Positions 2,627 to 12,100 are shown, counted from the first letter of the stretch. The stretch is DNA of 26,312 nt from Desulfobulbus sp. (GCA_011051825.1 DRKH01000325.1:1-26312); one strand, 5' to 3'. Made by a program: numbers and translations. The notes: generated by a model from the letters alone, not told the origin.

Positions 2627-3247
2627 ATGGATATTAATCACTTTATACAACAAATCATCATCCTGGCACCGCCGTTCCTGCTGGCCCTGACCTTTCACGA
2701 ACTGGCACATGGCTATGTGGCATGGAACCTGGGCGACCCAACGGCCAAGAATGCCGGACGCCTGACCATGAATCCACTCAAGCACCTGGATCCATTGGGG
2801 GTCATTGCCTTCATCATTATGAAAATCGGCTGGGCCAAGCCGGTGCCGATCAATCCCAACTATTTTAAAAATCCGCAAAAGGGTATGCTGCTGGTTGCCC
2901 TGGCCGGACCGGCGGCCAATGTCATACTGGCTGTTGCCAGTGCCATCCTGGTCAAAATTCTTTTAGCTGTGCCGATTATCCCCATGTTTGTCCTTAAACC
3001 CCTGGTCGGCATGCTGGTGGCAAGCGTCTGGATCAATATCATGCTGGCGGTCTTCAACTGTCTACCGATTCCCCCGCTGGACGGCTCCAAAGTCCTGATG
3101 GGGATTCTGCCTGCGCAGACGGCACGCAGTTATGCAAAGCTTGAGCCTTTTGGATTTATCCTGCTGCTGGTCCTCTTTTACACCGGCGTCATCTCCAAAG
3201 TCATTATGCCCGTTATCAACTTTGCCAACGGCCTGCTCCTGGGCTGA
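2627..3247 (+). CDS. Site-2 protease family (M50) membrane metalloprotease
   Basis: HELAH (HExxH), NCLPIPPLDG motif, several hydrophobic segments. Confidence 0.93.
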   Translation: MDINHFIQQIIILAPPFLLALTFHELAHGYVAWNLGDPTAKNAGRLTMNPLKHLDPLGVIAFIIMKIGWAKPVPINPNYFKNPQKGMLLVALAGPAANVILAVASAILVKILLAVPIIPMFVLKPLVGMLVASVWINIMLAVFNCLPIPPLDGSKVLMGILPAQTARSYAKLEPFGFILLLVLFYTGVISKVIMPVINFANGLLLG

Positions 3248-3521: not shown

Positions 3522-3791
3522 TCACTTTTTCGTCTTTTTTCGTCTGTGGCCGACAGCCAAGACCAAAATAACTATTTTTTCCTGTTGAACTTCACAGATC
3601 AGGCGATAATCACCGACACGATACTTCCACAGACCTGATAATGACCGGCGCAATGGATCGCCATACCTTTGCGGATCCTCAGCAGTTTCAATGCGTTTCT
3701 TGAGATATTTAAGAATGTCCCTTTGCGTTTGCTTTCCAAGCTTATCGAGTTGCCTCCTTGCTGTCTCAGAGAATTTAACCTGCCAGATCAA
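3522..3791 (-). CDS. RelE/ParE-family toxin (TTG start overlapping the antitoxin end)
   Basis: WQVKFSETARRQLDKL...LSGLWKYRVGDYRLICEVQQEKIVILVLAVGHR is typical of RelE/StbE. The C-terminus is atypical (see findings). Confidence 0.88.
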   Translation of the reverse strand: MIWQVKFSETARRQLDKLGKQTQRDILKYLKKRIETAEDPQRYGDPLRRSLSGLWKYRVGDYRLICEVQQEKIVILVLAVGHRRKKTKK

Positions 3792-4002
3792 GTTCTTTCT
3801 CCACTTCATCCAGAGTGTAAGTCTTTTCCTGGCCCTTGCGGATACGCTCAAGAGTTTTTTCGGCTAAATAGACTTCTTCCATTTCATCGAGTTGACCCAA
3901 GATTGCCTCTTTAATATAAAACGCTTTTGTCCTTCCTGTTGCGGCAGCAAGATCATTTAATCTTTGTTCTGCCTCTGCGGGTAATCGAACTGAAGTAGGC
4001 AT
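3775..4002 (-). CDS. RHH (CopG/RelB-like) antitoxin
   Basis: MPTSVRLPAEAEQRLNDLAAATGRTKAFYIKEAI ribbon-helix-helix pattern, acidic C-terminus ending TLDEVEKELDL, SD AGGAGG, directly upstream of the toxin. Confidence 0.88.
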   Translation of the reverse strand: MPTSVRLPAEAEQRLNDLAAATGRTKAFYIKEAILGQLDEMEEVYLAEKTLERIRKGQEKTYTLDEVEKELDLAG

Positions 4003-4079: not shown

Positions 4080-4280
4080 TTATTCTTGTATATAATCAGG
4101 TTGGGGAGAGTTGGAGGTCAACTGCAAATTGGTTAAGGCACTTTCTTTAAATCGTCTGGCAAGATCCCTGTCCGGAACATCATGCCCGCCATGGCTTACT
4201 CGTTCTGCAACCCGCAAACGTGACATTTCCACATCTGGTAAGGCGAGATAGATCGCCACTGGCTCATATCCAAGCCCCAC
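4080..4280 (-). pseudogene. C-terminal fragment of a zeta-toxin-like/AAA_33 P-loop kinase
   Basis: GYEPVAIYLALPDVEMSRLRVAERVSHGGHDVP...RRF matches the lid region of zeta-like P-loop proteins. There is no Walker A and an in-frame stop lies immediately upstream. Confidence 0.75.
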
Positions 4281-4953
4281 TCACAAGAGTATTGGGTCGA
4301 ATTTGTGATTTCGACCAATGTTCGTTAACCGCCTGAATAAAAGCGGGACGAACTAATTTTGCGCGACTGACAAGCCGACCATCACGTTCATATCGAAGAT
4401 AAATCCCTTCGGCAGGCTCTGATGACAACTTGGAACATGCCAATAATTCTTCTAATTCAGGAAATGAAAAATGGCCGTTGGCAAGTAACGGGACAGCGGG
4501 GATACCTGCTTTTTTTAAGAGATTGTCCCTTTTCTTTACAGGCCAGAAGTTCCTCGTCTTCTTTTCGAGGACATCAAATCCTAAAAACCAGCTTGGAAGT
4601 TTGCTGTAAGAAACGGAATGCCTGGCATAGCACCATTCACCAAAAAGGATCAACCGATCCTCTAACGCATCAAAAAGAAGATCTGCTTTAACATGCAGCC
4701 AATCGGGCAGTTTTTTCCATTGACCAGTAAACGGTTTGTCGAGGTAACCGCCTCGGTTTTGTAGAAGAAGATTGCCCCCTTTATCAAAGGAAATCCCAAG
4801 ATTTGCCCCATCAATTTTTTCTTCAACAATGAGTTTGTGACGTAAAAATTCTTTCCGTTGTTCTTCATCCAAGACCTTATCTCCCCTGATAGACACTCCG
4901 GGAAGAACTGCCAAGTGAGGTGTAGACGGAAATTTAATAAAATTACGCACCAT
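4264..4953 (-). CDS. ATP-dependent RNA ligase family protein (adenylyltransferase domain only)
   Basis: N-terminal KFPSTPHL; motif I EEKIDGAN; QNRGG; III FGEW; IIIa FLGFDV; IV EGIYLR; V RAKLV. Confidence 0.9.
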   Translation of the reverse strand: MVRNFIKFPSTPHLAVLPGVSIRGDKVLDEEQRKEFLRHKLIVEEKIDGANLGISFDKGGNLLLQNRGGYLDKPFTGQWKKLPDWLHVKADLLFDALEDRLILFGEWCYARHSVSYSKLPSWFLGFDVLEKKTRNFWPVKKRDNLLKKAGIPAVPLLANGHFSFPELEELLACSKLSSEPAEGIYLRYERDGRLVSRAKLVRPAFIQAVNEHWSKSQIRPNTLVSGAWI

Positions 4954-5488
4954 CTTGAACCATCTTCTCCTGATATTTCTTTTTAACGTAATCCGGACAA
5001 AGGAAAATCACAGCAATCCCAACATCGTTTAAGGCATCTTTCCACCCCCACCACTTACTGTCAGTTGCCTGAAGAATAGGCGGTTTTTCAGGGTGGGCAT
5101 TAGCTACAGCGACAAATTTTCGATCAGAGATATCAAACTCTTGTAAATCATCGTGGTTAGGGAATTCTTCGTAGGAATCGTCTCTTTTGGTAATACTCAC
5201 TCGATCTTCATCCAACAAATAATATTGGTAATCATGAACCCATTTCATGAAGTGATCACCAATTCCAGGTTGACCACTCATGGAAAGTTGTTTCCGATAT
5301 TCATCGAAAATATCATTTTCATCATCTAAAATAAGCTTTCCACGGCCCGATGTCACATGCTCTACTGCCTTAATACATGCGTCAACACAATCCACAAGCT
5401 CATCAACAATATTCATTGGATCTTTGGCAAGATTGGCGACGACCGGAACGTTGGTATCAACAATACATTTTGAAGGCAGACTATTCAT
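4943..5488 (-). CDS. PIN-fold putative ribonuclease
   Basis: Acidic tetrad in PIN-like order: IVDTNV, FDEY, DISDRKFVAVA, ILQATDSK. 181 aa; overlaps both neighbours. Confidence 0.7.
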   Translation of the reverse strand: MNSLPSKCIVDTNVPVVANLAKDPMNIVDELVDCVDACIKAVEHVTSGRGKLILDDENDIFDEYRKQLSMSGQPGIGDHFMKWVHDYQYYLLDEDRVSITKRDDSYEEFPNHDDLQEFDISDRKFVAVANAHPEKPPILQATDSKWWGWKDALNDVGIAVIFLCPDYVKKKYQEKMVQDGA

Positions 5489-6905
5489 TGTTGACCGTAT
5501 CCACTTTATTTTTAATCATTGCCTTTCTTTTGAGCATAGCCGCTTTTGCCTGGGCTGTAATATCCCCCATCTCGTCACCGAAAAAATTTTCCGGCCAATT
5601 AGTGATATTACCAAAAAGATCAATCTGCAGTGGTTCTAATTTTGCTGGGGTTTTTGAGGCCATCGCAAAATAAGCAGATACATCTTTCCGAGATATTTCT
5701 TTAGGTTTTTTATTTTCTGCAATACGTCGTTGTAGTCTGCGGAGAAAATGTTCTGAATGGGTTTCGATGATAAGCTGAATATTTCTGTCTTTTCCATTTT
5801 CCCGAGAATTTATGACATCAATAAAAACATCAGCCAAAGCGGCCTGGGCACTGGGGTGCAGGTGTATCTCAGGTTGTTCAATGATGATAATAGAACCCTG
5901 CGGAGCATAAAAGCACTGTACCAGTACAGGTAAAACCTGTGAGATGCCAAAGCCGACATCAGGCAAGTCAACAAAATCATGTGATCCTGTTGTGCACACT
6001 TTAACCTCATATTCCTGGCGGGTTTCAGAAATTGGATTGACTTTAAATTTTTCAATCAATCCCATTTCCTTCAATTTTTCGGCGATGAGTTGCATAAATG
6101 GTTTTGCCTGACGTTTATAGCCCAAGCTGATTTTTCTCTCTTGAGCCGCCAGCATTGCAGCAACAGCATTTTCTCCGCCATAACCCACATCTTCGGGAAT
6201 AATTCCAGCCCAGGAATAAAGGCGTTCTGTTTTGGTTCGCAAAGGGCCAAGATAAAAAACTGACTGAAAAAGTTTTTCCTGTTCAAGGTTTAAGGTTTGG
6301 ACAAAATCTGCATTTTTGTAATAAGCAACTACTTCATCAGGAAATCCATAAAAACGAACCGTTGTTGAGGGATACCATACCCGGCCTGGGTTACGTTTAA
6401 GTTGATAGTCTTCGGCTATCACCTCATATTCAATCTTGGAACTTTCGCGACGATTCATACCAATAGATAACGAAATATTATTTCCTTTTAAGAGCGAATA
6501 GTTAAAGCTGTCCAGCACAACAGTATGGTGGTCTTCGCCTGTCATTCCAACGGTGGCGCTAAAGGACAATTGTTTCCCTTGGTATTGACTTCCCGACAAC
6601 GGATCCTTGAATTTAATATTTTTCCTTAAATCCCAAGTATATTCAAAGCTAATTTTGTTATCTTTGTTTCTGTGATAGACCATTTCCAGATAGGATCCTA
6701 ACTGGACAGCTGTATTTTTCCCGCCAGGATAAAATATCGCTTTTCGGTCTTGAGAATCGACTGTTTGCCGAAGCATCATCAACAATTGACCGATACTCGA
6801 TTTTCCGGAGCTATTGGTTCCAAAAAAGAGAGTAATCGGTGCCATTTTAATAGGATCCGTATCCTGCCAGTTTTTAAAATTTTTAATCCGCAGTTCTCTT
6901 AACAT
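5481..6905 (-). CDS. ABC-type ATPase, AAA_21/AbiEii-like with C-terminal DUF3696
   Basis: Walker A GTNSSGKS, signature GFGISQ, Walker B/D-loop IIIIEQPEIHLHP, H-loop IETHSEH, C-terminal IDLFGNITNWPENFF. Confidence 0.92.
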   Translation of the reverse strand: MLRELRIKNFKNWQDTDPIKMAPITLFFGTNSSGKSSIGQLLMMLRQTVDSQDRKAIFYPGGKNTAVQLGSYLEMVYHRNKDNKISFEYTWDLRKNIKFKDPLSGSQYQGKQLSFSATVGMTGEDHHTVVLDSFNYSLLKGNNISLSIGMNRRESSKIEYEVIAEDYQLKRNPGRVWYPSTTVRFYGFPDEVVAYYKNADFVQTLNLEQEKLFQSVFYLGPLRTKTERLYSWAGIIPEDVGYGGENAVAAMLAAQERKISLGYKRQAKPFMQLIAEKLKEMGLIEKFKVNPISETRQEYEVKVCTTGSHDFVDLPDVGFGISQVLPVLVQCFYAPQGSIIIIEQPEIHLHPSAQAALADVFIDVINSRENGKDRNIQLIIETHSEHFLRRLQRRIAENKKPKEISRKDVSAYFAMASKTPAKLEPLQIDLFGNITNWPENFFGDEMGDITAQAKAAMLKRKAMIKNKVDTVNNE

Positions 6906-6915
6906 GTTATCCGCC

Positions 6916-7198
6916 TTATTTTATCCCAACCCGTTCCTGAAAAGTCTTTTCACTGCTGTCCCCCGACACAGCAAAATCATATTCATGCAGGACTCTCCGC
7001 AGCTCTCTCAGTTGTCTGGCTACACCCTTGAGGTACTCAATGGTCTTTGTTTCCAGTTGAAAGCCGCAATATTCTTCATCATCCTTCTTTACAGGATTAT
7101 CCCAAGGGACTTCATTATATTATAACGATATCCTGTTCCAGCTGGTCTGCAAGGTAATTCAGATAAAATTCCTCGTGATTAACATGGCAGCCGCTCAT
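6916..7198 (-). pseudogene. Small hypothetical gene (about 93 aa) disrupted by a +1 frameshift
   Basis: SD AAGGAG then ATG at 7198: MSGCHVNHEEFYLNYLADQLEQDIV. The reading continues in another frame as YNEVPWDNPVKKDDEEYCGFQLETKTIEYLKGVARQLRELRRVLHEYDFAVSGDSSEKTFQERVGIK*. Span is 283 nt = 94 codons + 1. Confidence 0.7.
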
Positions 7199-7327: not shown

Positions 7328-9934
7328 CTATGCCTGTCCTTTACGTGTCATCCGAAGGGCATGGCGATAAATATCCGGGATTCTATAGCGGGATACACCG
7401 TCATCATGTTCCTCATACACAGATAAAATACCCACCTCAAGAGCTAATGGAATAAGATCTGATTGTCTTTCCAGATCACTAGCTGCAACCGGAGTGCGGC
7501 CAATTCTTTTAAGATTGTCGAGTAATGGTTCCAGCTCTTTAAACTCTTCTTTTAAGGCGCCAAGAGCCTGTAAGGACACTTCAGATAAACATTCGATTAA
7601 TGCTCGGGGACGAATAAGAGCTCTGGTATATGGCGAGCGCGCATGTGCATTTTTCTCCCAGGGAACAGCCTCATGAAACAGTTGCAGAAGATAGCGCGGA
7701 GTGTGATCTTTATTTCCGTCAGCCAATCGGGTCCATACCCAATTACGGGTAAAGGTTGTCTTGCCCCCCTTCATCCGTTCACCAACCAGGATATTCCAAA
7801 CAAAAAATACGTCATTTTCCGTCCAGGTATCCACTGGCCTGTCAGGGCTGGGGGCTCCAGAAAAGTCTTTTAGGAATTGCTTAAGTTCTTTACACAACAA
7901 TGCCTGTTTCAGTGCAACCTTCAGATATGTGGCTTTGTCAGACCATTTAAGAACCACCGAGCGGCCATAAAGATGACTTTTATTTTCAAAGTGTAATCCT
8001 TTCCAGATATCTTCACGTAACAAAATCTTAAAATGCAGATTTTGTAATGCCTGCCCCTGATCCATCAAGAGATCAAATAGACCTTCTATAGCATGTGTTC
8101 GGCGTACTCTATCTTCCGACGCACTGTTAAATCCTGTATCTAATCCATCAAAAAGCAAAAAAGTATCGGCGGTTGTGGAGTTGTCCAAATGCCTTAGCCA
8201 ATCGTTCAGCTCCAGTGGAGCACGGGAAGTTTTTGCAGTTTTCTCAAAAGCTGAGATGATATCCAGCTCAGATTCAAATGAGCATGTTTTTAAATATTCC
8301 GGCGTATAATCAGCCACATCCAGAGAACGAACGGTGGCTATATTGACATACAGTATCCAAAAATGACGCCATGACAATTCACTCTCTCGAATTACTTTTT
8401 CAATTTCTCTAAATCCGTCAGCCGTAATGATCCAGCTTCTTTGTTTCTTAAGTGGGGCAGGTGCATGAACAATTACAGAATCACCCCGTTCTGTGCTTTC
8501 CGATATTCGCCGAAAGATAGCAGTCTTCCCAGATCCTTTTCGGCCAAGTACCAGTGGAATATTTGTCGAAACAGCATCTTTGACGACTGTTGTTTCTACA
8601 AAACTCTCTATAAAATAACCTTGAGCTTCTGCTGTCCCTGTTGCAAAAGAAAGATTTTGTAAAATATTATCCTTTTCATTTTCCAGTGATCTTGCCTGTT
8701 GCTCTTCATTTTCAGATGGTAAAAACCGTTCAATCCAGTTTGCGACTGGTTCAAAATTTTTCCAGATAGTCGAATCCTGTAAAATATAATTTGAAGAGGC
8801 GATTTCGTCACGATATCGAACAAAATGAGTTAGTTCCCTTTCATCAAGAATCTCGCTATCCTCTCTATCTTCATTAACGCCGGACAACCAATCAGAGATC
8901 CACTCAAAAGACTTTACTTCATATTTTTTTTGTAACTCAGGGACGTTCGGCAGTGGAGATACCAGGAAACGCGGTTCCGGAGCCAAAGCCTGTCCGGATA
9001 TTTTCCTGCCAGTTCGGGAAGTCAGCAATCCTTGAGTCAAGAGTTCAGTTCCTAAACGGGCCTGGGGATGAGGAAAGAATGTAACAATAGCGATATCAGC
9101 TAAATCAAAAAGAAGCGGCCCGTTTATATCTGTTATTCCCGTACGGGCATCAAGCAGGATAACATCCGGTTTGAAAGGTAATTTTTCTTTTATTCCGGTC
9201 AAAAACAGTTTCAGGGGGTTACGTTCTTCCCTGTACCAGGCATCCGGCATTATAAAACGCAGCTTGCGTGCATAGTCCGCAGTTGTCCGCCCGGCAGGAA
9301 TTAAATAAATATTATCTGATTCAGGGACAGGAATTAAATGAGATGCAAAATCAGGTTCCTCTCCCTGATCTAATTCAACCAACAGGGACACAACTCCCTG
9401 AGACGAAGTAACCTCATCTTCGCATTTAAATAATGCCGCAAGACCTGGTGCTTCCAAATCCATATCAACACAGACTACTTTACGACGGTTTGCAGAAAGA
9501 AGATGGGCTGTATAGGCAAGAGCTGTTGACCTCCCGACACCGCCACGTAAAGAATAAAATGTTGCCACAATGGGTGGATCAAGATCTTCATCAAGATCTG
9601 ACGGAAAGACTGTTTTTTCCGTACTTCCAAGAGTCCCTCGAGCCAATGCTTCAGGCCATAAGGGAAGGCTCTCAACCTCAATATCACCCGGCAGGGTTCC
9701 AATCCACTCTCTTTCTTCAGGGGTAACTAATTCAACCCACTCAAGCTCTTCATTCTTTATCCCTGCGAGTACAACCTGAATCCGTTCCTTTTGAGAAATA
9801 CCTTCAAACCCTTTCGCAATAACGGCAACTTGCCACCCGCCGTAAGGATCTTTTTGGATAATAATTTTTTCAGGTGCAATATCCGCTTTTTCCAGATTGT
9901 TTTTCAGTTGTTGTTGTATTTCATCTCTTTTCAT
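7328..9934 (-). CDS. Multi-domain NTPase (868 aa): small N-terminal alpha/beta domain + ParA/MinD-like ATPase + STAND-like P-loop ATPase
   Basis: The ATG overlaps the HEPN stop (ATGA). First NTPase: FYSLRGGVGRST, VDMDLEAPG, LLDARTG. Second NTPase: LGRKGSGKT, LLFDGLD, LLREDIW. C-terminal YRIPDIYR. Confidence 0.85.
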   Translation of the reverse strand: MKRDEIQQQLKNNLEKADIAPEKIIIQKDPYGGWQVAVIAKGFEGISQKERIQVVLAGIKNEELEWVELVTPEEREWIGTLPGDIEVESLPLWPEALARGTLGSTEKTVFPSDLDEDLDPPIVATFYSLRGGVGRSTALAYTAHLLSANRRKVVCVDMDLEAPGLAALFKCEDEVTSSQGVVSLLVELDQGEEPDFASHLIPVPESDNIYLIPAGRTTADYARKLRFIMPDAWYREERNPLKLFLTGIKEKLPFKPDVILLDARTGITDINGPLLFDLADIAIVTFFPHPQARLGTELLTQGLLTSRTGRKISGQALAPEPRFLVSPLPNVPELQKKYEVKSFEWISDWLSGVNEDREDSEILDERELTHFVRYRDEIASSNYILQDSTIWKNFEPVANWIERFLPSENEEQQARSLENEKDNILQNLSFATGTAEAQGYFIESFVETTVVKDAVSTNIPLVLGRKGSGKTAIFRRISESTERGDSVIVHAPAPLKKQRSWIITADGFREIEKVIRESELSWRHFWILYVNIATVRSLDVADYTPEYLKTCSFESELDIISAFEKTAKTSRAPLELNDWLRHLDNSTTADTFLLFDGLDTGFNSASEDRVRRTHAIEGLFDLLMDQGQALQNLHFKILLREDIWKGLHFENKSHLYGRSVVLKWSDKATYLKVALKQALLCKELKQFLKDFSGAPSPDRPVDTWTENDVFFVWNILVGERMKGGKTTFTRNWVWTRLADGNKDHTPRYLLQLFHEAVPWEKNAHARSPYTRALIRPRALIECLSEVSLQALGALKEEFKELEPLLDNLKRIGRTPVAASDLERQSDLIPLALEVGILSVYEEHDDGVSRYRIPDIYRHALRMTRKGQA

Positions 9935-10344
9935 CTGGGTCTCCTCTGGCGGCGAATTTGACTTGAAATCCATCCTGTAAGTTGCTTTGCAGCTTTTACA
10001 AGTTCGTCTGCAGGGTGAGTAAGTTCTTGATTGGTGTTTTGATATCGCAAGGCTGTATCCCAGTTATTGATAAAAAAAGCTTTTTCACCTGATTTATCTT
10101 TTAAATCAGCGCTCCTAAAACCTGCTGATCGCCATAATCCCTGCAGGTTATGTCCATCTTTTCCTCTGGTTGAAAAGGGACTGTTTGTCCTGCGTAAATA
10201 TGATTTCAGCATACATTCAACAGCATAACCTGCCATATAGACTGGCCCTATTGATTCACTACGACGTGGAAGCATGGCATCAGCATCGGCAGCCCGTTCC
10301 ATAGCTGTATCACGCCAATCGTGATATGTTTGTGGATCATTCAT
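9931..10344 (-). CDS. HEPN-domain protein (137 aa), putative RNase
   Basis: VYMAGYAVECMLK helix, Rx4H motif RGKDGH followed by NLQGL, and W...LRY. The ATG overlaps the upstream stump's stop (TAATG). Confidence 0.8.
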   Translation of the reverse strand: MNDPQTYHDWRDTAMERAADADAMLPRRSESIGPVYMAGYAVECMLKSYLRRTNSPFSTRGKDGHNLQGLWRSAGFRSADLKDKSGEKAFFINNWDTALRYQNTNQELTHPADELVKAAKQLTGWISSQIRRQRRPR

Positions 10345-10514
10345 TAAGCATCCCCCATTCGTGTTACTGTCTGGTCGTACCACATGGGCAGTTTTGGGTC
10401 TTCTTCGAGGATTTTGGGTAGTATTTTTTCGGCAATGGTGATGATGGTTTTGTAGTCTCTGCTCTGCCAGGCGTTTTTGAAATATTTCAATGCTTGCGCA
10501 GTTTGATTTCCTTG
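10344..10514 (-). pseudogene. 3' stump of a large DNA methyltransferase gene
   Basis: Translates as ...YFKNAWQSRDYKTIITIAEKILPKILEEDPKLPMWYDQTVTRMGDA*. This resembles the C-terminal 'GFKKAWQERDY.TII.VA.KIP..ILQEDPKLLMWYDQA.TR' tail I recall from large N6/N4 methylases. No start codon; missed by the ORF track. Confidence 0.7.
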
Positions 10515-10870: not shown

Positions 10871-12100
10871 TTACAACTTGTACGATACTCCGATGGTGGC
10901 CACATGGGCTCCGGAGCCGGTGAACTCACCGTTGACAATCGAGTTCTCCGCACTGCGATCATCTTTATCCACATAGAGATAGCCAATGCCGACTTCCAGC
11001 TGATCGGTTGCCTGATAGCGAACTCCCAGTGAATACAGGTATGACTCGGAATCGGGCAGATCAAAACCCAGGCTCGAATCCGGGACCGGGGTCTCATCAT
11101 AGGCAAAACCGGCCATCAGGATAAAGGATTTTTTTGTATCCCAGGTCAGACCGATACGATAGGTATCGCTGTCGTCCCAGTTCTTGATCTTGGGCTGATC
11201 AAAGGCCGCGATCAGGATCGGATTGCCCAGCGAAACCGGATACCTGAAATCCAGGTTGTCATATTCGGACCAGTAGACACGATCATACTCCAGCTCAACG
11301 GTAAATTGATCGGCAAAGGTATAGGATCCGGCCAGGGCCAGAACCGCCGGCATGGGAACCGAAACCGCTCCAGGACCGTTATAGGCCCCGGGTCCGGCAG
11401 AGGTCGCAAGCTGAGCATCTCCTTCCAGCCCCAGGTCCACTTTGGAGCGATAGGTCGCGCTGAGATTCATCTCCTTAATCGGACGGGCGCTGAGGGCCAG
11501 ATTGTAGCCCCATTCCCAGGTGTCGCCATCCATATAGCGGCTGGCCGTTATTCCGGGGGCAACCTGACCAGCACTTCGCACCTTGGCATCTGCATAAACG
11601 GCTCTTACGCCCGCTGCCACGGAAAAGATATCCGTAAAGGTATAGGATGCGGAAGTCGCGAGTTCATAGGTCTTCAGGGTGAACTCTTCGGCAAAGGTTC
11701 TCGGATAGAGCTGGGGCCACTGCTTGGAGAGCCCACTGGGATAGGTCAGGGAAAGACCGATCCGGAAATTATTATAGTCTGGAGAGACAGCAAAAAAAGT
11801 CGGCAGGACAAAGTTCTCCTCCTCGGACTTCCCGTCATACAATGAGGTTCGGTTATCGCTATAGGTAATGGATTTCAGATTGATCCACTCCAGGTTTCCC
11901 TCAAGATAGCCCCGATCCTCGAGCCAGCCCATGTTGGCCGGATTAAAATAGGCCGCATCGGCGCCGGGCGTATAGGCGATATTGGCTCCGGCCTTGGCAA
12001 CGGAGTTCACGGACTGCTCCGGAATACGATATCCGGCCCCATATGCCGTACCACTGACAACCAGGGACGCGACCGCAACAAGGACAATTTTCTTTTTCAT
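10871..12100 (-). CDS. fadL: OmpP1/FadL/TodX family outer-membrane long-chain fatty acid transporter
   Basis: Signal peptide, AGYRIPEQS...AGA..A...DA AYFNPA hatch motif, alternating beta strands, aromatic C-terminal strand; adjacent to an acyl-CoA synthetase. Confidence 0.88.
   Translation of the reverse strand: MKKKIVLVAVASLVVSGTAYGAGYRIPEQSVNSVAKAGANIAYTPGADAAYFNPANMGWLEDRGYLEGNLEWINLKSITYSDNRTSLYDGKSEEENFVLPTFFAVSPDYNNFRIGLSLTYPSGLSKQWPQLYPRTFAEEFTLKTYELATSASYTFTDIFSVAAGVRAVYADAKVRSAGQVAPGITASRYMDGDTWEWGYNLALSARPIKEMNLSATYRSKVDLGLEGDAQLATSAGPGAYNGPGAVSVPMPAVLALAGSYTFADQFTVELEYDRVYWSEYDNLDFRYPVSLGNPILIAAFDQPKIKNWDDSDTYRIGLTWDTKKSFILMAGFAYDETPVPDSSLGFDLPDSESYLYSLGVRYQATDQLEVGIGYLYVDKDDRSAENSIVNGEFTGSGAHVATIGVSYKL

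Follow-up and report, generated by a model that had tools for sequence, protein, structure and literature searches.

A 26,312-nucleotide stretch of Desulfobulbus sp. DNA (GCA_011051825.1 DRKH01000325.1:1-26312, hereafter the window) carries on its minus strand three overlapping genes, in the order ABC-type ATPase, PIN-like nuclease, and minimal ATP-dependent RNA ligase. In all likelihood this trio is a defense system of the HEC-03 type, and the chances are about even that it represents a three-gene variant of HEC-03 whose ligase reseals the RNA breaks made by the PIN nuclease. The ATPase-PIN core was known before, as HEC-03; the RNA ligase as a linked third gene appears to be new. A preliminary description of the locus had put the trio forward as a candidate new system without a named counterpart. 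This holds for the ligase, which as a third partner of an ATPase-PIN pair is not described in the literature searched (Burroughs and Aravind 2016, NAR 44:8525, lay outside that search), but not for the core, for which a PADLOC check returned the models of HEC-03, a validated system.

HEC-03 (Hma-embedded candidate 03) consists of an ABC ATPase and a VapC-like PIN protein encoded within Hma systems (Payne et al. 2024, bioRxiv 10.1101/2024.01.29.577857). The pair from Pseudomonas cichorii ATCC 10857 reduced plaquing, with both genes required, and was toxic when over-expressed with isopropyl β-D-1-thiogalactopyranoside (same reference). Like that pair, the window genes encode first a DUF3696-type ATPase and then a VapC-like PIN protein on one strand in overlapping frames, here by 8 nt. 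Both proteins match the HEC-03 models of PADLOC-DB v2 over their full length, the ATPase matching PDLC04148 (HEC-03B) at 2e-124 with residues 1-464 of 474 and the PIN protein matching PDLC04147 (HEC-03A) at 1e-32 over profile positions 3-157 of 159. (In the paper ‘A’ denotes the ATPase and ‘B’ the PIN protein; the PADLOC labels are reversed.) Shared motifs were also recognized by eye (GQP.(I/V)GD, D.SDRKF, and the TD(S/T).W region), and in both cases the pair is embedded in other defense loci. The published system differs in having two genes, whereas here and in most of the branch to which the window trio belongs an overlapping gene for a 229-residue RNA ligase comes third; an RNA ligase goes unmentioned in the text and supplements of Payne et al. 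that were searched. A model for the ligase is missing from PADLOC, whose HEC-03 models comprise the two published genes only, so that the three-gene form is not recognized as a unit. Protection against phages by the window trio is predicted from its HEC-03 membership, and this match, together with the defense genes around it, bears out the anti-phage context first proposed.

The three open reading frames (ORFs) are intact and co-directional, and their overlaps of 8 and 11 nt lie exactly where they were first placed (Table 1). They fall within a low-GC island (GC 0.40-0.44, compared with ~0.55 outside). Judged by their strong family matches, intact frames, and position in this island, they are genes and not chance ORFs, and they form a genuine operon. 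The trio is present once in this genome, and a search of 12 others of the same genus did not find it. Scans for promoters and terminators gave counts close to those in shuffled sequence and do not define the operon ends.

The identity of the first gene product as an AAA_21/DUF3696 ATPase was confirmed by Pfam matches to AAA_15 (7e-27), AAA_21 (2e-19), and DUF3696 (PF12476, 1e-09). Besides HEC-03, PADLOC gave weaker matches to NsnB (4e-61) and AriA (2e-28, partial), and partial ones to GajA and PtuA. The second protein has no Pfam match. Its AlphaFold2 model (predicted local distance difference test score, pLDDT, 79.6) aligned by VIA-align with PIN domains only in the top 50 rows (VapC, Z 7.5), and residues D11, D55, E63, D119, D122, and D143 are conserved at ≥95% among 127 divergent cluster representatives. 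It is thus a PIN-fold protein with an intact acidic site, as had been proposed. An exhaustive profile search put the size of this PIN family at 1325 clusters at E ≤0.001; the top match in that search, P0245, was rejected as a PIN protein, being a 3796-residue repeat protein that scores via 42 weak stretches.

The third protein matches PF09414 at 3e-33 and has no PADLOC match even at E 0.1. All the nucleotidyltransferase motifs attributed to it were found and are conserved in 31 homologs: I (EEK46IDG), III (FGE106W), IIIa (FLGFD127), IV (E182G), and V (K199LV). With the catalytic motifs conserved in each, both the PIN protein and the ligase look like active enzymes. The AlphaFold model of the ligase is poor (pLDDT 60.9, termini <50) and was used solely to confirm the ligase fold; its top Foldseek matches are RNA ligases. 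By sequence (PDB, 3.5e-11) and fold alike, the nearest solved structures are the archaeal Rnl3 ligases (Pab1020, MthRnl, and the Palaeococcus pacificus enzyme), which share the nucleotidyltransferase core. Rnl3 enzymes, however, are multi-domain proteins of ~380 residues, of which the match spans residues ~90-250 only (~88-251 in the PDB sequence matches). Membership of Rnl3 was rejected, the 229-residue window ligase being without the N-terminal, dimerization, and C-terminal domains and scoring 44.7 bits against TIGR01209, under the cut-off of 136.9. Nor does it belong with the nick-sealing Rnl2 or Rnl5 ligases: it is too short to include their accessory domain (C-terminal in Rnl2, N-terminal and OB-like in Rnl5), and its fold matches to T4 Rnl2 and NgrRnl cover the core only.

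Below ~45% identity, relatives of the ligase are no longer found in HEC-03 context. The nearest of these non-HEC-03 relatives, 33-42% identical over the full length, occur on IMG/VR contigs, some labeled as giant-virus bins, as C-terminal modules beside a 2H phosphoesterase, a dual-specificity-type phosphatase, and a P-loop kinase, the architecture of heal-and-seal RNA repair. The window ligase and these viral modules have in common an N-terminal KFPxTxHL and a C-terminal HW...N motif, and because the termini are shared, the 229-residue protein can be taken as the complete sealing module of the viral clade; for the same reason, the idea that the conserved but poorly modeled termini are partner-binding motifs specific to HEC-03 was rejected. 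Heal-and-seal enzymes (the ‘Swiss Army Knife’ 2H-phosphatase-kinase-ligase proteins of large viral contigs, phage T4 Pnkp/Rnl1, and fungal Trl1) have a ligase module homologous over its whole length (33-42%). They differ in that their ligases are fused to or paired with a healing kinase and phosphatase and counter RNase attack, whereas the window ligase stands alone and is encoded together with the RNase itself. These relationships support an RNA end-joining role for the ligase.

Four proteins of 400-840 residues encoded on low-GC IMG/VR contigs illustrate the range of these viral architectures, their C-terminal ligase modules being 37-42% identical to the window ligase. Those of L181 (2334-4754) and L182 (4177-6693) contain a 2H phosphoesterase, a protein tyrosine phosphatase-type phosphatase, and a P-loop kinase; that of L183 (4609-6684) is without the 2H domain, and that of L179 (5482-6690) has the kinase only. 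On the P. aeruginosa plasmid pF051 (163878-172636; L232), a 34%-identical ligase gene is followed by one for a different AAA-family ATPase and lacks a PIN neighbor; the two may constitute a ligase-kinase repair pair of another kind.

The case for the ligase as part of the system comes from its linkage to the ATPase-PIN pair, which we assessed in two samples of loci. The PIN-seeded sample (one genome per species; the nearest 80 PIN relatives, 79 assessable) and the ligase-seeded sample (80 metagenome loci at 47-83% identity, 77 assessable) are both biased, the latter having been seeded with the ligase itself. Among the PIN-seeded loci, the ligase gene lies directly downstream in 73 of the 79, a remnant of it in two, and none in four. 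Conversely, 70 of the 77 ligase-seeded loci have a PIN gene immediately upstream, the whole ATPase-PIN pair being visible in 46 of these 70. The neighborhood conservation thus bears out the linkage that the preliminary description had proposed, and with the PIN fold of the middle protein also confirmed, that description held on the points where computation could have overturned it. The PIN-seeded loci come from Chlorobiota, Thermodesulfobacteriota, Planctomycetota, Chloroflexota, Verrucomicrobiota, Spirochaetota, Acidobacteriota, Nitrospirota, Synergistota, a candidate-phylum bacterium, and others. Overall, the ligase linkage reaches more than 15 phyla as well as conjugative plasmids, with hundreds of loci in this branch.

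At both junctions in the relatives a 4-nt overlap is the commonest arrangement (ATGA in 74 of 117 at the ATPase/PIN junction; 58 of 117 at the PIN/ligase junction), and the gene overlaps in the trio are compatible with translational coupling. Pairwise distances of the three proteins correlate (r 0.78-0.89, a figure inflated by relatedness), a pattern that shows co-inheritance and not contact. In close pairs the ratio of nonsynonymous to synonymous substitution rates was 0.09-0.22 for the ligase, 0.07-0.43 for the PIN protein, and 0.05-0.20 for the ATPase.

The linkage has its exceptions. Intact ATPase-PIN pairs without a ligase exist, which means that the ligase is not an obligatory antitoxin. 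On the ATPase + PIN tree they appear as scattered tips and a few deep branches, a distribution that fits several losses, or possibly gains; among divergent PIN representatives, P0256 and P0281 have three genes, and P0292, P0313, and P0382 have two. No substitute repair enzyme was found in the ligase-less loci, where the downstream genes encode unrelated proteins (FAD-binding, Schlafen/AlbA_2, TOTE primase-helicase). The reverse case also occurs, the ligase having been kept beside a deleted ATPase-PIN pair in four loci (L106, L123, L172, and L147). From its distribution, the ligase is best described as a conserved accessory of one large HEC-03 branch.

Conjugative plasmids, too, carry the trio, in Aeromonas salmonicida and in Rhodococcus aetherivorans, where RefSeq labels its products ‘DUF3696 protein’, ‘hypothetical’, and ‘RNA ligase family protein’, and the window trio itself appears to be a horizontally acquired HEC-03 copy of the widespread three-gene form. 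Cultured carriers include A. salmonicida, with a pAsa9-like plasmid, Akkermansia glycaniphila Pyt (L075), and Desulfobulbus alkaliphilus DSM 24258 (L023). Three IMG/VR contigs classed as viral (L176-L178) carry a complete trio, which in L177 adjoins a phage-type integrase, and prophages or satellites may thus serve as vehicles for the system. Within the operon, loci L097 and L098 are ~94% identical in DNA over the flanks and the genes for ATPase and ligase, compared with 62-70% over the PIN gene, and divergence of one gene in otherwise near-identical trio operons was seen also between L076 and L137 and between L026 and L049. Such pairs show allele swapping by recombination within the operon. 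A recombination hot spot specific to the PIN gene was not upheld, because the shuffling hits all three genes, in 6-26% of close pairs; the trio operon is generally mosaic.

Several other defense systems resemble parts of the trio. Menshen (NsnABC) has an ATPase, NsnB, that is matched by the window ATPase and shares its DUF3696 tail. The Menshen effector starts with a PIN-like domain that is predicted to be clamped between two DUF3696 tails; its PIN-like domains are without catalytic residues, and a separate nuclease is located at the C-terminus (PMC12065111). The window PIN protein, by contrast, stands alone with its acidic site conserved, and Menshen has no ligase. Membership of Menshen was rejected, as there is no NsnA (ParB-DUF262) gene, neither the PIN protein nor the ligase matches NsnA or NsnC, and the PIN site is intact. 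PARIS (AriA-AriB), Septu (PtuA-PtuB), Gabija, and OLD share the ATPase superfamily and the logic of a sensor plus a nuclease, but their effectors are TOPRIM or HNH proteins rather than PIN proteins, and none has a ligase; PARIS was specifically rejected on the partial AriA similarity and the absence of a TOPRIM gene from the operon. In fold and acidic site the window PIN protein is closest to VapC toxins, yet the trio includes no VapB-type DNA-binding antitoxin, and the gene upstream of the PIN gene encodes a 474-residue ATPase rather than a small VapB, which rejects VapBC. PrrC and RloC were rejected too, as the ATPase terminates in DUF3696 and the nuclease, a PIN protein, is encoded separately rather than as a fused anticodon nuclease.

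By analogy with PARIS, Septu, and Menshen, in which paired ATPase tails hold the effector, the ATPase may sense infection and release or activate the PIN nuclease. The nuclease would then cut RNA, probably tRNA or rRNA, and leave 3'-OH/5'-P ends. Such ends are the product of metal-dependent PIN-like nucleases, for example SMG6 and protein-only RNase P. The ligase, which has no end-healing domains, would reseal the breaks, either limiting the damage from leaky activity or permitting recovery after an alarm. We place this resealing role at just under an even chance, because direct sealing needs 3'-OH/5'-P ends and a report on VapC toxins conflicts with that chemistry. The broader idea, that the ligase is a co-translated, built-in means of damage reversal by which host tRNA or rRNA cuts are resealed and arrest becomes reversible rather than suicidal, is plausible but falls somewhat short of even.

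A number of points weigh against resealing. The 5'-P/3'-OH chemistry expected in the preliminary description is contradicted for the toxins of M. tuberculosis, where VapC proteins are stated to leave 5'-OH ends (Woychik laboratory; PMC6459853); 5'-OH ends are not sealable by an ATP-dependent ligase without a kinase and a phosphatase. The viral relatives of the ligase are fused to healing domains, while the HEC-03 ligase has none. The HEC-03 pair that was tested, from P. cichorii, carries no ligase, and because intact ligase-less pairs exist, at scattered tips as well as in deeper two-gene lineages, the ligase is dispensable for viability and, in P. cichorii, for defense. Both samples of loci are biased towards ligase carriers, and the substrate of the PIN nuclease could be RNA or DNA. 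A predicted complex of ATPase, PIN protein, and ligase, with the ligase as the scored partner, scored 0.00, which weighs neither way.

The ligase might instead be a second effector that circularizes, mis-joins, or 5'-adenylylates the PIN fragments and thereby puts the damage beyond the reach of phage enzymes such as T4 Pnkp/Rnl1, in the way that RloC thwarts repair. That the nearest solved relatives are Rnl3 enzymes fits such an activity, as does the naming of close homologs as ‘ATP-dependent RNA circularization protein’ in one source. Large phages also carry related ligases, making a repair arms race plausible, and a ligase unneeded for the viability of ATPase-PIN carriers suits an accessory effector equally well. 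We nevertheless consider a second effector unlikely: it has no direct support, the closest non-HEC-03 relatives lie within heal-and-seal architectures, and circularizing activity cannot be assumed for a ligase without the extra Rnl3 domains.

A general RNA-repair accessory, mending damage from phages or other RNase toxins rather than PIN cuts in particular, would be in keeping with the RNase-type neighbors in the island (the HEPN and RelE/ParE proteins) and with the occurrence of this ligase clade elsewhere in repair proteins that stand alone. The cuts made by HEPN and RelE enzymes, however, end in 2',3'-cyclic phosphate and 5'-OH, which the window ligase alone could not seal. Moreover, whether traced from the PIN gene or from the ligase gene, the linkage singles out the ATPase-PIN pair, with overlapping frames, whatever the surrounding genes, and we regard such a general function as improbable.

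Only slight probability attaches to action on DNA, in which the PIN protein would nick or trim in the manner of a flap or 5'-nuclease and the ligase would seal, amounting to nick-and-reseal surveillance of phage DNA. The PIN-like superfamily does include DNA flap nucleases, FEN1 being among the weak fold matches to the window protein, PF09414 includes the nick-sealing T4 Rnl2 and NgrRnl, and the trio is embedded in DNA-targeting systems (BREX, Dnd), but the best structural matches are VapC-type RNases and not FEN-type enzymes, Payne et al. class the PIN protein as VapC-like, and the relatives of the ligase belong to RNA repair architectures. Finally, that the ligase is a hitch-hiking neighbor with no functional tie to the ATPase-PIN pair, as its repeated loss from kept pairs and its persistence beside the four deleted ones might suggest, is hard to credit in view of the near-constant two-way linkage over many phyla, the 4-nt overlaps, the correlated divergence, and purifying selection.

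The neighbors of the trio fit a defense context (Table 1). On one side the trio is flanked by a RelE/ParE-RHH toxin-antitoxin pair, beside which lies a strong promoter-like site (11/12 matches) at 4078-4051. On the other side, directly upstream of the trio, are the HEPN gene and the gene for an 881-residue protein that combines a ParA-like ATPase domain (KGGVGR variant; NF047398 1.6e-44, PDC-M28B 5e-29) with a Sll1717-family P-loop ATPase domain (NF047389 1.4e-34, PDC-M28C 7e-13); together they look like a fused form of the PADLOC candidate PDC-M28. A 66-residue minus-strand ORF at 4080-4280, which shares 17 nt with the end of the ligase gene, matches no family; the one weak relative in the fetched loci is in L079 (46% over 41 residues), and the ORF is probably a gene fragment. 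The gene at 28-2067 and those of the M50 peptidase and FadL-like porin mark the native flanks of the island.

Relatives hold the trio within a BREX locus, between PglX on the upstream side and PglZ, BrxA, and BrxH on the downstream side, or beside genes of Dnd or type I restriction-modification systems. In 30 of 104 related loci the ATPase gene is immediately preceded by the C-terminal end of PglX, and a 43-residue stump of this end persists in the window. The protein that identifies the stump, L014:809-3256, clusters with L001:678-3680, which PADLOC scored as PglX|PglXI. The stump points either to export of the cassette from a BREX locus or to collapse of a surrounding one. Just upstream of the ATPase gene is also the remnant of a 99-residue gene (MSGGHFD...YDYAVSGDSS; L001:6314-6613, L058:6308-6607) that overlaps or precedes the ATPase start in 10 of the 104 loci. 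It has no Pfam or PADLOC match and may be an optional fourth component.

Table 1. Features of the trio and its surroundings, in positions of the window
Feature	Coordinates	Strand	Evidence
ABC-type (OLD/AAA_15-AAA_21) ATPase with C-terminal DUF3696 tail, HEC-03 ATPase component, 474 aa	5481-6905	-	ORF, Pfam, PADLOC
Walker A / P-loop, G29-TNSSGKS-S37, Lys35 (GTNSSGKS = residues 29-36)	6795-6821	-	translation
DUF3696 C-terminal helical tail, ATPase residues 404-449	5559-5696	-	PF12476 1e-09
ATPase stop / PIN start overlap, 8 nt	5481-5488		ORF listing
PIN-like nuclease, HEC-03 effector component, 181 aa	4943-5488	-	ORF, PADLOC, AlphaFold fold comparison
First PIN active-site motif, D11-T-N-V	5447-5458	-	translation; D11 is D in 122/127 cluster representatives
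PIN stop / ligase start overlap, 11 nt	4943-4953		ORF listing
Minimal ATP-dependent RNA ligase (nucleotidyltransferase module only), 229 aa	4264-4953	-	ORF, PF09414, conserved motifs
Ligase motif I, K46-I-D-G (adenylylated lysine)	4807-4818	-	translation; nearly invariant in 31 homologs
CCA-adding or poly(A) polymerase-family protein with CBS and DHHA1 domains, housekeeping-looking	28-2067	+
M50 peptidase	2627-3247
RelE/ParE-family toxin	3522-3851	-	PF05016 3e-17
Ribbon-helix-helix (RHH)/DUF6290 antitoxin	3775-4002	-
Frameshifted remnant of 99-aa gene	6928-7198	-	two blastx high-scoring segment pairs to L058:6308-6607; frames broken by stops
881-aa double-NTPase protein	7328-9973	-	directly upstream of trio with HEPN gene
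HEPN protein	9931-10383	-	Pfam HEPN 0.004; PADLOC PDC-M28A 3.5e-05
BREX PglX methyltransferase C-terminal stump, 43 residues	10353-10481	-	blastx 77% identity to L014:809-3256, residues 771-813 of 815
FadL-like porin	10871-12100

Bacterial immunity to phages often works through cleavage of the cell's own tRNA or rRNA. Whether and how cells recover from such cleavage is a question on which the ligase may bear, within a branch of HEC-03, a system validated in the laboratory. The role of the ligase also bears on the end chemistry of this VapC-like PIN nuclease and on whether defense by RNA cleavage can be reversible or is instead built so that phage repair enzymes cannot undo the damage. If damage reversal proves true, no RNA ligase before this one would have been shown to be integral to a bacterial immune system, and the ligase would do for RNA what damage-reversing antitoxins such as DarG do.

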